Of a stretch of 64,000 bases of DNA, positions 21,023 to 38,398 are shown piece by piece. The number at the start of each line of letters is the position of its first letter. The stretch's first letter is position 1. Both the position numbers and the translations under genes were made by a program. This DNA comes from an uncultured Gammaproteobacteria bacterium (GTDB lineage Bacteria > Pseudomonadota > Gammaproteobacteria > DRLM01): positions 256,001 through 320,000 of the forward strand of contig CAVSNY010000002.1 in assembly GCA_963729605.1 (NCBI GenBank), given 5' to 3'. Under the pieces are notes generated by a model. It had not been told where the DNA came from, did not search any database, and saw nothing but the letters and a program-made list of their open reading frames with translations.

Positions 21023-21040
21023 CTGGTACACCCTTTGCAT
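21023..21040 (+). promoter_or_regulatory. sigma54 promoter for PilZ gene
   Basis: CTGGTACACCCTTTGCAT (GG-N10-GC). Confidence 0.65.
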
Positions 21041-27138: not shown

Positions 27139-27155
27139 TTGGCACATAGGCTGCA
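27139..27155 (+). promoter_or_regulatory. sigma54 promoter
   Basis: TTGGCACATAGGCTGCA (GG-N10-GC) with AT-rich upstream tract. Confidence 0.75.
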
Positions 27156-33706: not shown

Positions 33707-34639
33707 ATGTTTATGAAGTTGATCGGCGGTGCCCCGGCGCGGGGCGTGTGCTTGGTTGTGATGATGTCGTGCGCCGTGGTCGGCGCGCATCATCCGGTTT
33801 TCGCTTCGACGCCGATGGCGGCGCGCGATCCGGGCGGGGTGCAGGCCTCGACGCCGGTGACGCAACGGCTGGCCTATATCGAAAGTCTGCTGCAATCGAA
33901 GACCGGTCTGCGGCTGACCGCCTCCGCCGATCCCGAGGTGCGGCAATTGCTGGCGCAATTGCGCGAACGCTTGGCGAAGGCCAAGGACGCGGCGCAGGCC
34001 GGCGACACCGCCCGCGCCGAGCAGTGGTCGCGTGAAGTCATGGCGGGTTTGATGGAGGCGTCGCGGCGTTTGCCCAGCGAAGACGAGGACGACCGCCGCG
34101 CCGAGCAGTTGCGTTATCAGAATTTGCGCCAGGGTATCGAGGTGTTTCAGCAGGCGCATCAGCGCAACTCGAGCCGCTTGAGCGCCGAGGAGGGGAATGC
34201 CGCGGTGGTGGATTTCGATGCCGACACGGTGACGGGCTGGGTGCGCGACGGCGACCACGCCGCGCTGGGCGGCGACTACGTGACCGCCAATGCCTTTTTG
34301 ATCAACGCCCAGCAGGCGATCACCGGCGCGCTGCGCGGGATGTTGAACAACCGCACCCTGGTGCACGAACTCAACATCGATACCGCCGAGGGCGAATATC
34401 AGTATGAGCTGCAACGTTATCAGGGTTACGCGGATTTGATTCCCGTCGCCATCGACCTGCGTTCCCCGCCGCCGCAAACCATTTCGGAAATGCTGGCCTT
34501 GATGGACAAGGCGCAATGGATGGTGCAGCAAGCCGGGCTCACCGCCGACAAGGGCGATTATCCGGTTGCGATCCGCATGGTGCTCGATGCCACCGCCGCG
34601 GTGCGCACGGCCTTGCGCGGCGCCGGGGTGGATATGTAA
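33707..34639 (+). CDS. Secreted all-helical hypothetical protein
   Basis: GAGG RBS, signal peptide, repeated A...GD...A helical hairpins, EYQYELQRY. Confidence 0.7.
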   Translation: MFMKLIGGAPARGVCLVVMMSCAVVGAHHPVFASTPMAARDPGGVQASTPVTQRLAYIESLLQSKTGLRLTASADPEVRQLLAQLRERLAKAKDAAQAGDTARAEQWSREVMAGLMEASRRLPSEDEDDRRAEQLRYQNLRQGIEVFQQAHQRNSSRLSAEEGNAAVVDFDADTVTGWVRDGDHAALGGDYVTANAFLINAQQAITGALRGMLNNRTLVHELNIDTAEGEYQYELQRYQGYADLIPVAIDLRSPPPQTISEMLALMDKAQWMVQQAGLTADKGDYPVAIRMVLDATAAVRTALRGAGVDM

Positions 34640-34688
34640 GGATGGCCCTCCGCGGGTGTGTGAGCAGGTCAGGGCGCGAGGTTTACCG

Positions 34689-35453
34689 ATGTTGGGGGTG
34701 AAGGCCTGGCGACGCCGGCGTGCCTTGCGCGATCCCGGCTTTACTCATCAACAGTGGGCAGCGGCGGTGCGGAGCGTGGCCTTGTTGCAAGATTGGCCGG
34801 CCGGCGCGTTGGCCAGGCTGCGCGAGCATACGGTGTTTTTTCTGCGCGCCAAGCGCTTCACCGCCGCGGGGGGCGGGCAGATCGGCGACGGGCTGCGGCT
34901 GCTCATCGCCATTCAAGCCAGCGTGCCCATCCTCCATCTGGATGTCGATTATTACGCCGGCTGGCGGGAAGTGATCGTCTACCCCGACACCTTCGTGAGC
35001 CGCCATCAGGAAATGGACGAGGCGGGTGTGTTGCACAGCTGGCGGCAGCCGTCGGCCGGCGAGGCCTGGTCTCATGGTCCGCTGGTATTGTCGCGGGCCG
35101 ATGTGGAGGAATCCGCGCTGCAGCGCGACGGCTACAATGTGGTCATCCACGAAATGGCCCACAAGCTGGATATGCTCAACGGCGACGCCAATGGGTTCCC
35201 CCCGCTGCATCGCGAGATGCGTATCCCGGACTGGGTGCGGGCCTGGTCCGAATCCTATGAAACCTTCTGCGGCCAAGTGGACCGTGATGAGGACACGGCG
35301 CTGGATCCCTACGGCGCGGAAAATCCCGCGGAATTTTTTGCCGTGATCAGCGAGTCCTTCTTCGAAACCCCCGCCCTGGTGCACGACCATTTCCCTTTGC
35401 TCTACCCGCAACTCCTGGCCTTTTATCGTTACGACCCCCGCCGCCCGGTTTGA
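34689..35453 (+). CDS. mtfA: M90 zinc metallopeptidase (MtfA family)
   Basis: VIVYP..F, GEAW, NVVIHEMAHKLD, DPYGAENPAEFFAVISE.FFE. Confidence 0.92.
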   Translation: MLGVKAWRRRRALRDPGFTHQQWAAAVRSVALLQDWPAGALARLREHTVFFLRAKRFTAAGGGQIGDGLRLLIAIQASVPILHLDVDYYAGWREVIVYPDTFVSRHQEMDEAGVLHSWRQPSAGEAWSHGPLVLSRADVEESALQRDGYNVVIHEMAHKLDMLNGDANGFPPLHREMRIPDWVRAWSESYETFCGQVDRDEDTALDPYGAENPAEFFAVISESFFETPALVHDHFPLLYPQLLAFYRYDPRRPV

Positions 35454-35471
35454 GTATTCCTTCTCGGGCGC

Positions 35472-35503
35472 AAAAAAAAGCGCTGCCCGGGGAGGGGCAG
35501 CGC
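35472..35503 (-). terminator. Intrinsic terminator of putative sRNA
   Basis: Minus strand GCGCTGCCC-CTCCCC-GGGCAGCGC-TTTTTTTT. Confidence 0.85.
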
Positions 35504-35632
35504 GATCGCTCAAGGAGGGATGAACGAAGACGCTCTACAGTTGGTTCAGGATACCCTTCGCGGTCAGGGAAACCGTGGGTTGGACGGGTATCCAGGAAGG
35601 TCCGCCGGGGGACGGGGAGCCCCTCCGCCGGT
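35472..35632 (-). ncRNA. Putative sigma54-dependent small RNA (~160 nt)
   Basis: Bounded by a sigma54 promoter and a T8 terminator; no ATG; three stems with C-rich loops. Confidence 0.6.
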
Positions 35633-35640
35633 ACTTCAAA

Positions 35641-35691
35641 ATAGCAATCGATGTGCCAAGAAATGGCTATCTATTAAAAATCAGTAACTTA
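35641..35691 (-). promoter_or_regulatory. sigma54 promoter plus IHF-like site
   Basis: Minus strand TTGGCACATCGATTGCT (near-perfect consensus); AATCAGTAACTTA at 35679-35691 matches WATCARnnnnTTR. Confidence 0.85.
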
Positions 35692-35914
35692 ATTGAAATA
35701 TGGCCGTCGCGGTCCACCAAAAACGGTTTTTGCGGCCCCAAAGAGTCGTCGAGGAGAGACGGGCCCGCCCAATATAGAATTAAGATTTTGATTTTTTAAA
35801 TAAAAACCCAGTCTCCAGAGAGAGACGGACCGGCCTGCGCGCCGTGAAATACGACACGAAAGAAACCCCCCGCCCGGCCGATAAGTACTGTAAATATTAC
35901 ATGCGTTTGAAAGG

Positions 35915-38398
35915 ATGACAGCCGGAGTACCTATGGGTGACCGTGACAAGGTAGTGAATATCGGCGCGCGCATTTCGCGTGATGACGGGGTTGCGCATCA
36001 ACACGAATTGCTGGTGCGCTGCCGGCAAATCGCCGAGAAGGATCTGTGCGAGTCGATCAAACAGGTGTTCGATAAAGCCGACGACCTCTTGTTTGAACGC
36101 AGCAACGGGTCCGAGGACGGCGCCAGCCGCTATTTCGATGCGCTGCGTGAATTGCGGATCAAGCGCCAGGAAATGACCCAAACCTATCTCGAGGCCTTGC
36201 TGCGGGAGCACGACGGCCGTTTGCGCCGTGCGCCGGCGGTGGCGGGTAAACCCGGCGGCCGCGTTCCCTTGGGCGGCGGTTTGTCTCTGATCGACGAAAA
36301 AGAGTTGGAAGAATCGCTGGCCGTCGAAGGGATGGTCGGCAAGGCCGGGGAACGTTGCAACCAGGTTTTGTATGCGCTCAGCCAACGTTACGCGCAGTTG
36401 GCGGAGGGCGTGAAGCTTGAGCCCGAAACCCACCCGCTGGCCCCCGAGGTGATCTGCCACGCCTTCCGCGATGCATTGGGCGGCATCGAAGTCGGTGTCG
36501 AAATCAAATTGATCATCTACAAGCTCTTCGAAAAACACGCGGTGAAACCGCTCGACGAACTCTACGACAAGCTCAATACCTTGCTGGCCGATGCCGGGAT
36601 ATTGCCGCAACTCAAGGCGACGGCGCCGGTACGTTCGAGTAGCGCCGCCGCCGAGCGGCCTCGCCCCGCCGCCGCGGCTGACGTCGCGACGGAGGCGGCC
36701 GCGGGCAATTCCCTGCCGGTGCCGGTGACGGCCCTCACCGGGATGACCGGGGGAGGAGGTGACGGGGACGTCTATCACACCCTGCAACGGCTGATGAATC
36801 TCAAAAAATACGGCGGCGCGGCGCCGGGGGCGGAGAGCGGCGGCGGCTTGCCGGGCGGCGCCATGGCCGGCGTAACCGGGCAATTCGGCGGAAGTGGTTA
36901 CGGCGGTGGTACCGTCGCGGCGGTGCCGGTGGCGGCGACGGTTTTGATCGAAGGGCTGTCCTTATTGCAGCAGCTGCCGCCCCCGCCGCCGGAAATGACC
37001 GCGGGCCATGCCGCCATCGCCTATATCAAATCGAGTTTATTGGAGCGCATCGGCGACTCGGCGCTGGGCAAGACCATCGACCCGGTCACCGACAACACCA
37101 TCGACGTCATCGGGATGATCTTCGAGTTTATACTCGACGAGACCAGTATCCCGGAATCGGTGAAGCGCCTGCTCAACCAGCTGCAAATTCCCATCCTCAA
37201 GGTCGCCATCGTCGACAAGGAATTCTTCGCCAACAAGCAGCACCCCGCCCGGCGCCTGCTGAACAGCTTGGGTCACGCCAGCATCGGCTGGAACGACAAA
37301 GACCCGCACACCCAGCGCCGCCGCTTCGAGAAAATGGAATACCTGGTCGGCCGGGTTTTGAAAGAATATGAAACCGATCCCAGCGTCTTCGCCGAACTGC
37401 TCGCCGACTTCACCGGTTTTCTGGCCACCGAGGTGGACGATGAAGAGCCCGCTGAAGAATGGGCGCAGGAAGAATCCCCGCCGGGGGCGCCGGAGGAAGA
37501 GCAAATTGCGCCGGGCAAACACGCCTTCGAGACCGTTGAATTGCGTTTGGGCGGGGTGGAGGCGCCGCGGCTCGTCCGCGATTTTTTGCGTAATACTTGG
37601 CGGCAGGTCTTGGAACAGGTGGCGGCCGCCGAGGGACCGGAGAGCGATTCATGGCGGCGCCGAGTCCAGTTGATGGACGATTTATTGTGGAGCGTGGAAC
37701 CCAAGCCCGGCGGCGATGAACGGCGGCGCATGGTGGCCCTGTTGCCGCGGCTGTTGGGCGGATTGCAGGACGGCATGAACGCCGTCGGCTGCCAGCCGGC
37801 GGAAATGGATGCGGTGCTCAACGGCTTGCAGCCCATTCACATGGCCTGTTTGCGCGGTGAGGCGCCGCCGCCCGAGGCCGGCGAGACGCCGCCGCGGGTG
37901 CCTCGCGCGCCGGCCTCCCAGGAAGTAACGGACATGATCCGTTCCATCCAGCAGGGCATGGACGGTGCGGAGTCCGCACATGACCAGCACGCGGCCAACG
38001 GCGTCGCCGATCTGGAGCGGCAGTTGGCGGGGGCGGCGCACGGCGGTGATTTCATGTCCACGTTCGCCGGAACGGAAGAGGACTCCTTACTCGACCCCGG
38101 CGAGACGCTCATTGAAGACGAATTCACGGAGAAGGTCCGCGCGCTGGCCATCGGCACTTGGCTGGAATTCGCCCAAGGCGACAAACCGCGCCGCGGCAAG
38201 CTGGGCTGGAAGAGCGCGGTGCTGGGGCAATACGTGTTCGTCGATCGCCGCTACAAAGTGGTGACGGAGCGGACCCTGGCCGAATTGGCCGCCGATTTAC
38301 GCACGGGACGCGCGCACGTGGTGGAAAAGGTGGGGATGTTCGATCGCGCCCTCGACGCCGTGATGGCGGGCCTGATGGCCGGGGCCGGCGCCCGGTAA
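35915..38398 (+). CDS. DUF1631 family protein
   Basis: ELEESLA, PLAPE..C.AF, IKLIIYKLFE, LNQLQIPILKVA...FF...HPARRLLN, G.WLEF, FDRAL. Confidence 0.9.
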   Translation: MTAGVPMGDRDKVVNIGARISRDDGVAHQHELLVRCRQIAEKDLCESIKQVFDKADDLLFERSNGSEDGASRYFDALRELRIKRQEMTQTYLEALLREHDGRLRRAPAVAGKPGGRVPLGGGLSLIDEKELEESLAVEGMVGKAGERCNQVLYALSQRYAQLAEGVKLEPETHPLAPEVICHAFRDALGGIEVGVEIKLIIYKLFEKHAVKPLDELYDKLNTLLADAGILPQLKATAPVRSSSAAAERPRPAAAADVATEAAAGNSLPVPVTALTGMTGGGGDGDVYHTLQRLMNLKKYGGAAPGAESGGGLPGGAMAGVTGQFGGSGYGGGTVAAVPVAATVLIEGLSLLQQLPPPPPEMTAGHAAIAYIKSSLLERIGDSALGKTIDPVTDNTIDVIGMIFEFILDETSIPESVKRLLNQLQIPILKVAIVDKEFFANKQHPARRLLNSLGHASIGWNDKDPHTQRRRFEKMEYLVGRVLKEYETDPSVFAELLADFTGFLATEVDDEEPAEEWAQEESPPGAPEEEQIAPGKHAFETVELRLGGVEAPRLVRDFLRNTWRQVLEQVAAAEGPESDSWRRRVQLMDDLLWSVEPKPGGDERRRMVALLPRLLGGLQDGMNAVGCQPAEMDAVLNGLQPIHMACLRGEAPPPEAGETPPRVPRAPASQEVTDMIRSIQQGMDGAESAHDQHAANGVADLERQLAGAAHGGDFMSTFAGTEEDSLLDPGETLIEDEFTEKVRALAIGTWLEFAQGDKPRRGKLGWKSAVLGQYVFVDRRYKVVTERTLAELAADLRTGRAHVVEKVGMFDRALDAVMAGLMAGAGAR

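Follow-up and report, generated by a model that had tools for sequence, protein, structure and literature searches.

Small RNAs (sRNAs) transcribed from sigma-54 promoters, such as Qrr and CrcZ, end in a terminator and serve as the dedicated, or nearly dedicated, output of a single enhancer-binding protein. GlmY and GlmZ, presumably the Rfam families RF00128 and RF00083, are the most relevant of the described systems for the element examined here. Their genes, as presented in PMC3045617, combine a sigma-54 promoter with GlrR sites (consensus TGTCN10GACA) and an upstream IHF site (consensus WATCARXXXXTTR), and the section of a review concerned with their distribution has GlrK/GlrR and GlmY/GlmZ strictly co-occurring within the Enterobacteriaceae (PMC4152352). 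A different precedent is set by the alphaproteobacterial cuckoo/alpha-r14 RNAs, for example NfeR1, which the relevant parts of PMC4615179 and PMC10746234 describe as carrying an anti-Shine-Dalgarno (anti-SD)-like pyrimidine motif in hairpin loops with variable stems, with a proposed action at ribosome-binding sites (RBSs); in these RNAs the identical 9-mer CCUCCUCCC recurs in each of 2-4 adjacent hairpins (as related in PMC4615179), and NfeR1 transcription is activated by LsrB and antagonised by NtrC (as related in PMC10746234). Here we analysed a stretch of 64,000 nucleotides (nt) from an uncultured gammaproteobacterium, hereafter the window, whose minus strand carries what is very probably a genuine sRNA gene of ~160 nt, divergent from a gene for a DUF1631 protein. 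The RNA represents a new family of a known kind, the sigma-54 sRNAs, with an unexpected link to its regulator. The literature that we searched nowhere describes it, and treats GlrR/QseF binding sites only for enterobacteria.

The initial annotation, made from the letters alone, had proposed a ~160-nt minus-strand unit without an ATG, a near-perfect sigma-54 promoter in front of it, a 9-bp GC stem plus T8 at its end and a divergent orientation relative to DUF1631, and direct reading of the sequence substantiated each of these features (Table 1). On the minus strand, a single open reading frame (ORF) of 40 aa or more begins within the unit; it is a TTG frame (34683-35513) without a Pfam match that runs antisense through the adjacent M90 peptidase gene. 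The predicted RNA forms four hairpins with a minimum free energy of -71.8 kcal/mol (z = -4.49), and none of 200 shuffled sequences folded as well. Both the fold and covariation upstream of DUF1631 orthologues supported the stems that had been predicted earlier, namely the 5′ hairpin, GGAUACCC/GGGUAUCC enclosing CGGT/ACCG, and the terminator. Covariation was counted in genus g1 only, the 5′ two-thirds of the RNA being unalignable across genera: for 40 predicted pairs, 98.5% of pair cells were paired across five genus-level sequences, versus 34-45% with slid partners, and compensatory changes affected four pairs, versus 1.2 ± 0.8 in shuffles, with none of 500 shuffles reaching four. Because these five sequences are close and every compensatory change comes from a single one of them (G002), we treat the covariation as modest evidence. 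Rfam searches of the window at the gathering score, and of positions 35350-35950 at E-values up to 10, returned no family for the sRNA, so the claim that it is not a recognised sRNA held.

Transcription of the locus was assessed by comparing the assembled contigs of three sequencing runs with positions 35200-36100 (901 nt). A compost RNA library contained one contig of 121 nt (depth 353) that matched 35506-35604 at 100% identity and had adapter at its end, and a soil library, RNA by guess, contained one contig of 114 nt (depth 20) covering 35525-35619 with one mismatch. These two contigs stem from different studies, lie wholly inside the predicted RNA and are the sole contigs of the two libraries on the 901-nt stretch. 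The flanking M90 and DUF1631 genes were without contig cover in both, an absence that we did not count as evidence, and the third run covered the locus as the DNA of a relative would. The window RNA gene is apparently expressed, a hint rather than proof because assembled contigs are silent on strand, termini and abundance and because the soil library is only guessed to be RNA.

Subsequently, we delineated the distribution of the unit by BLAST, synteny and a covariance model (R1) in 12 genomes of the order, all from a single family of uncultured Gammaproteobacteria and including the genome that holds the window RNA (G000, on contig C2). A unit divergent from DUF1631 that matches the window gene in promoter, size and terminator was present in nine of them: all four genomes of genus g1 (G000-G003), to which the metagenome contig L014 adds a further copy, three of genus g2 (G004, G008 and G009), and one each of genera g3 (G005) and g4 (G006). 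No orthologous unit was found by any of the three methods in G007, G010 and G011, which are 83-84% complete; one-mismatch matches in G010 and G011 were rejected as sRNA genes. The covariance model detected one copy per genome in six of the 12, an exact 20-mer scan of genome contigs recovered only four already-known relatives, and a 19-mer scan of metagenome contigs yielded one true homologue (L014) plus seven contigs with the reverse complement.

Comparison of these loci pinpointed a 15-nt segment, GUUCAUCCCUCCUUG, within the small hairpin preceding the terminator, as a putative seed. It is invariant in G000, G001, G002, G003, L014, G005 and G006, that is, in three genera, and in predicted ensembles the loop UCCCUCCU has an unpaired probability of 0.87-1.0 in six of the seven seed-bearing sequences and of 0.62-0.94 in L014. 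Along with this seed, the GG/GC promoter elements, the IHF core, the palindromes and the terminator stem are fixed across g1, g3 and g4, whereas the 5′ two-thirds of the RNA diverge between genera to the extent that MAFFT was unable to align g2 and g3 to g1 there. The terminator loop differs already within g1 (G003, G002), its stem being conserved, and the C-run of the 5′ hairpin is lost in both sister genera aligned for that hairpin, G005 and G006. The C-rich motifs that had been listed as a wealth of anti-SD sequences are thus all present in the window RNA, but their conservation beyond the genus is confined to 15 nt, the UCCCUCCU loop with its 5′ flank. The locus offers a clean case of an anti-SD-like seed kept unchanged in an otherwise drifting RNA. 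In the g2 orthologues a two-tier central hairpin resembling SL2 is predicted, with different letters.

The promoter itself owes its credibility to conservation only. TGGCAC-N5-TTGC occurs with zero mismatches at a single site in the window, that of the sRNA promoter, and four of the five sites listed have one mismatch; because five sites with at most one mismatch compare with ~5.9 expected by chance, the match taken alone is insignificant. GG-N10-GC is kept in all nine orthologous loci, including the weaker AGGCAC-N5-GTGC of G006. A conserved -24 GG and -12 GC at the correct spacing, together with upstream activator sites, place the unit, by sequence, among sigma-54 sRNAs in functional kind. 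With one mismatch each, two other sigma-54-like sites of the window lie on the plus strand at 27140-27154, immediately 5′ of an ATG, and at 21024-21038, neither of them accompanied by GTC-N10-GAC sites. The IHF-like site that had been noted upstream of the sRNA promoter is present and lies in an A/T-rich tract, its core TTGAT unchanged in five of five aligned species.

Further upstream we identified two GTC-N10-GAC sites that the initial annotation had overlooked, 66 bp apart from centre to centre. Both fit the GlrR/QseF consensus, and they point to a GlrR/QseF-type regulator and an envelope-signalling regulon. GTC-N10-GAC is found at the distal position in six of the nine locus-bearing genomes; in G004 and G009 the distal half-site is degenerate, in G005 no site was identified, and the G006 locus has two perfect TGTC-N10-GACA sites. 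The consensus of PpsR/CrtJ is also TGTC-N10-GACA; this regulator was rejected as the palindrome binder, G000 being without PpsR (best score 35 bits versus a cut-off of 275). A survey of 43 sigma-54-like promoters in G000 revealed that the sRNA promoter alone is accompanied by GTC-N10-GAC sites at -260 to -40. One more promoter emerged when a looser pattern was applied to the order; it has a perfect TGTC-N10-GACA and lies 5′ of a gene for a secreted retropepsin-like aspartic protease of 187 aa (PF13975/PF13650; G000 C7:1246062-1246625, minus strand). This promoter is also conserved in G005 (L065), hence in two genera, and the protease is a candidate second member of the regulon.

Table 1 Features of the sRNA locus in the window.
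Feature	Position	Strand	Remarks
Small RNA, ~160 nt	35472-35634	minus	5′ end predicted from promoter geometry (± 3 nt); 3′ end at the U-run
5′ stem-loop SL1	35602-35631	minus	Two compensatory pairs
Central stem-loop SL2	35549-35593	minus	Outer stem GGAUACCC/GGGUAUCC around CGGU/ACCG; one compensatory pair per stem
Seed hairpin	35506-35527	minus	7-bp stem, loop UCCCUCCU; contains the invariant 15-mer GUUCAUCCCUCCUUG at 35525-35511
Intrinsic terminator with U8	35472-35503	minus	9-bp stem, 8 of 9 pairs G-C, at 35503-35480; T8 at 35479-35472
Sigma-54 promoter	35643-35659	minus	TTGGCAC-ATCGA-TTGCT (TTGGCAC-N5-TTGCT); -24 GG 35657/35656, -12 GC 35645/35644
IHF-like site	35679-35691	plus	AATCAGTAACTTA, fits WATCAR-N4-TTR; between activator sites and promoter
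Proximal activator site	35745-35760	.	GTCTC-N6-ACGAC (GTC-N10-GAC); ~102 nt upstream of the -24 TGG
Distal activator site	35811-35826	.	Perfect palindrome GTCTC-N6-GAGAC (GTC-N10-GAC); ~168 nt upstream of the -24 TGG
DUF1631 protein, 827 aa, divergent	35915-38398	plus	Pfam E = 9e-174; synteny partner across the order
M90 (MtfA-like) peptidase, convergent	34566-35453	plus	Stop codon 18 nt from the end of the sRNA U-run

A candidate for the activator was located in G000 on contig C6 (235641-239108), in an operon whose three genes encode a HAMP-HisKA-HATPase kinase, a protein with a lipoprotein signal and a sigma-54 activator, and which has a perfect palindrome ~210 bp upstream of its kinase gene. 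The second ORF (lipobox ...VTAC, coiled-coil tail) has no Pfam family, so we liken it to QseG by position only. The activator (C6:237741-239108, 455 aa) matched GlrR as its best NCBIfam family with 626.9 bits, 211 bits above the next family (415.6) and below the NF011695 equivalog cut-off of 763, and we therefore call it GlrR-like and no certified equivalog. Ten of the 12 other activators in G000 scored at most 361 on the GlrR model, the remaining two (L040, L049) being without a GlrR score. Most likely, the sRNA is the RNA output of a QseEGF/GlrKR-like envelope two-component system, since the putative regulator sits in a kinase-lipoprotein-regulator operon like glrK-qseG-glrR; its transcription quite probably depends on sigma-54, and hence rpoN, and on the GlrR-like protein, to judge from promoter and site matches. 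Immediately upstream of this operon lies a gene for a PEP-CTERM/exosortase-associated acyltransferase (C6:234243-235007, minus strand), and G000 also encodes a PrsR-like PEP-CTERM-box regulator (L042, 743 bits).

Set beside GlmY/GlmZ, the window RNA has, by sequence match, the same combination of sigma-54 promoter, GlrR/QseF-type TGTCN10GACA sites and upstream IHF site that PMC3045617 describes for them in its account of their promoters, a putative regulator encoded in a kinase-lipoprotein-regulator operon, and a similar size (~160 nt versus 184 to 148 nt for GlmY). It differs in having two activator sites instead of three and in the separation of the sRNA gene (contig C2) from the regulator operon (contig C6) in G000. 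The window RNA is no member of either family because the covariance models GlmY_tke1 and GlmZ_SraJ fail to match it even at E-values up to 10, its lineage lies outside the Enterobacteriaceae, its seed is a different, pyrimidine-rich (anti-SD) one, and the genome holds no sibling copy. The seed shows no obvious complementarity to the G000 glmS 5′ region. Qrr and CrcZ are comparable as terminator-ended outputs of what would be, by analogy, one activator; the regulator family and binding sites are different, and the window RNA has no Rfam match to them. Thus, GlrR-type promoter logic appears here to drive an sRNA unrelated to GlmY/GlmZ in an uncultured gammaproteobacterial order, although the envelope system was previously tied to sRNAs only in enteric bacteria.

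To follow this layout beyond the order, we scanned 401 gammaproteobacterial genomes for a signature consisting of the sigma-54 promoter and two GTC-N10-GAC sites at the observed spacings, which was present at 32 places in 26 genomes; the reversed control gave one genome. GlrR-like orthologues (E ≤ 1e-170; 91% identity in G002 and 58-69% outside the genus) occurred in 24 of the 26 signature-positive genomes versus 61 of 400 sampled overall, a tally that includes G305 and G317 (flagged unpublished). The association is strong and carries no formal statistic, and the count overstates independence because the genomes are mutually related. In 13 of the 24 co-occurring genomes the signature lies within 3.5 kb of the GlrR-like gene. 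By eye, small secreted EF-hand proteins are the product at 11 of 30 fetched downstream loci, more than any other type; all nine that were tested matched EF-hand Pfam models, eight above the cut-off. The EF-hand-side loci (L075-L077, L083-L086, L093, L098-L100, L136, L143, L147 and L157) often stand beside the regulator gene. Further downstream genes encode an OmpA-family lipoprotein and other lipoproteins, and one was read by eye as OpgG-like. The prevalence of EF-hand genes downstream of the signature, and their frequent position beside the regulator gene, suggest a calcium- or envelope-related role for the GlrKR-like system outside enteric bacteria, and the candidate regulon, which in many genera comprises periplasmic EF-hand proteins, lipoproteins and a protease, furnishes testable hypotheses on the role of this widespread sensor there.

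The signature also precedes units that resemble the window RNA. In G198 and G357, from another family, an ORF-free unit of ~160-180 nt with a C-rich hairpin loop and a terminator begins 16 bp after the activator gene, and in G360 and G202 (L095/L096) a long C-rich region lies behind an ORF of 22 codons. An Rfam search of such analogous units (G198, G357, G360, G202 type) assigned no family, the sole match being an unrelated isrC in L082. Within the order, the same promoter and sites in G008 drive a 41-codon ORF that has a Shine-Dalgarno (SD) sequence and behind which come a C-rich tail and a terminator (L024 864-1126, minus strand). These ORF-bearing units might indicate that the window gene is a messenger for a very small protein, its RNA part merely a 3′ UTR (untranslated region); we regard this as highly improbable, as the window unit and its seven closest relatives contain neither an ATG nor an RBS-bearing ORF, and conservation is maximal in a hairpin loop and follows no reading frame. 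The ORFs of G008 and of G360/G202 are tiny and hydrophobic and are joined to a C-rich region and a terminator, and these units are possible dual-function RNAs.

The neighborhood of the gene invites a further explanation, namely a mainly cis-acting effect on the convergent M90 gene through transcription collision or pairing with read-through M90 transcripts. The proximity of the M90 stop codon to the terminator end of the RNA (18 nt), the lack of a T-run on the plus strand after the shared terminator hairpin, and the convergent arrangement of M90 in both g1 and g3 would fit such an effect. Nevertheless, there is no overlap between the RNA and the M90 coding sequence, the surroundings of the analogous units in G198 and G357 are different, and a cis effect leaves the invariant exposed seed and the conserved hairpins unexplained, which makes this account quite improbable.

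The sequence of the seed instead suggests an action in trans. CCUCCUU is shared with the 3′ tail of 16S rRNA. GUUCAUCCCUCCUUG, with UCCCUCCU exposed, is complementary to RBSs of the AAGGAGGG type. In the set of eight metagenome contigs with the seed or its reverse complement, seven carry the reverse complement as the SD and start-codon region of an ORF, so seed-complementary RBS sites exist in nature. The 3′ module (35473-35532), comprising the C-rich loop hairpin and the terminator, aligns with the Betaproteobacteria toxic sRNA (tsRNA, RF02278), anti-hemB (RF02837) and MmgR (RF00519) at 24.9, 21.5 and 21.0 bits versus gathering scores of 50, 49.5 and 41; this resemblance is one of architecture and no membership. 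Likewise, the window RNA shares with the cuckoo/alpha-r14 RNAs the pyrimidine motif in a hairpin loop, but lacks the 9-mer CCUCCUCCC and carries UCCCUCCU in a single loop.

Collectively, these observations are compatible with a model in which a GlrR/QseF-type response regulator would bind the two upstream GTC-N10-GAC palindromes and, through IHF-assisted looping, be brought to the sigma-54 promoter, giving rise to a stand-alone trans-acting RNA of ~160 nt. From its 5′ end, this RNA would consist of one hairpin, a second and long one at its centre, a linker, a small third hairpin that exposes UCCCUCCU, and the terminator; the loop and its 5′ flank would mimic the anti-SD tail of 16S rRNA, and pairing with the purine-rich RBSs (AAGGAGGG...) of several mRNAs would most likely block translation initiation. 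Repression by RBS occlusion is favored because a frozen, exposed stretch resembles the 16S tail, anti-SD-loop families match below threshold, and there is a likeness to the cuckoo type. That the RNA acts as an anti-SD translational repressor has, in our judgement, slightly better than an even chance; the complete picture of a trans-acting sRNA under GlrR/QseF-type control that pairs by anti-SD complementarity we consider reasonably, if not strongly, likely.

Several results weigh against this picture. Targets were sought in G000 by a k-mer pre-filter and duplex energies, with start regions taken from a home-made gene caller, and the search found no target whose complementarity is conserved across the seed-bearing genomes. 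The best match, the ribosome-binding region of a restriction-modification methylase, belongs to a gene that only G003 possesses among five relatives searched; the start regions of GspE and MltD, complementary in G000, were rejected as their pairing is not kept in relatives. Background-level pairing (mean -15.9, sd 4.2) was all that the leaders of the protease, the kinase operon, DUF1631 and glmS and the regulator start region gave. The other G000 candidates are a LivG-like ATPase, PCMT, an integrase, a type I restriction subunit and two ORFs without a Pfam match, and the duplex energies form a continuum with no clear outlier. The RBS-pairing repressor of the initial annotation accordingly stands as the best-favored mechanism, while the conserved target that it would call for was sought and not found. 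On the side of the RNA, the seed hairpin of G006 has one broken stem pair, and not all of the order shares the exact seed, since g2 (G004, G009) has a different C-rich stretch, CCUUACCCC, which is single-stranded in a retained architecture. In the same direction point the limits stated above for the covariation set, the sequencing contigs, the activator scores and the co-occurrence count.

The empty search for conserved mRNA targets would be expected if the RNA were a protein decoy of the GlmY type, its hairpins sequestering an RNA-binding protein (RapZ-like or other) and its C-rich loop being a protein contact. The type of regulator and the promoter layout are as in GlmY, and G000 has a RapZ-like gene. 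In GlmY/GlmZ, the RapZ-binding part is the central hairpin, whereas in the window family this hairpin diverges while a short single-stranded stretch is invariant, a pattern typical of pairing seeds. In addition, the Rfam models of GlmY and GlmZ have no match in the window RNA even at the relaxed threshold, and the RapZ RNA-binding domain is reported, in the review's treatment of its occurrence, to coincide with GlmY/GlmZ-bearing Enterobacteriaceae (PMC4152352). A decoy is, on this balance, unlikely.

The seed also resembles one arm of abundant hairpin repeats (CCCCTCCTTG-loop-CAAGGAGGGG...), for which the RNA could be a regulator or sponge. In one sub-family, the opposite arm is fully complementary to the seed over 15 bp, including two G-U pairs; a regular expression for the repeats has 168 matches in G000 on both strands, and CAAGGAGGGGTGGAC has five occurrences in G000, 18 in G002 and one in G001, with a T variant twice in G005, versus 2-3 matches of backward controls per genome. 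Yet the seed is invariant although the copy number varies widely (none in G006), the repeats fold their complementary arm into a hairpin of its own, and the g2 genomes show no excess of complements to their own seed (4-7 matches versus 3-9 in controls), so that we give this explanation a slim chance. The repeat family is very abundant in G000 and has the form of a double hairpin, CCCCTCCTYG-loop-CRAGGAGGGG followed by a GC hairpin, often in tandem clusters; examples outside the window are C5:69594-70127, C5:73120-73654, C7:727154-727367 and C7:528102-528462.

A still broader proposal, which we put forward tentatively and consider doubtful, makes the window RNA the tip of an old, unrecognised regulon. 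On this view, a QseEGF/GlrKR-like system present in about one-sixth of the sampled gammaproteobacterial genera would have as its sigma-54 targets periplasmic EF-hand calcium-binding proteins, OmpA-type and other lipoproteins, a secreted aspartic protease and, in several lineages, independently shaped sRNAs with anti-SD-like C-rich loops, some of them joined to ORFs for tiny membrane peptides. GlmY/GlmZ would then be a specialised derivative, and not the source, of a general coupling between GlrR and an sRNA, and the RNA arm would globally damp the translation of mRNAs with strong SD sequences, envelope mRNAs among them, when the system fires.

Finally, at ~35860-35890 of the window, where the distal palindrome is separated from the start codon of DUF1631, the minus strand carries a motif (TATCGGCC, ~13 nt, then TTCTTT). 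The motif recurs at the same place in every orthologous locus and is possibly the promoter or an operator of DUF1631.

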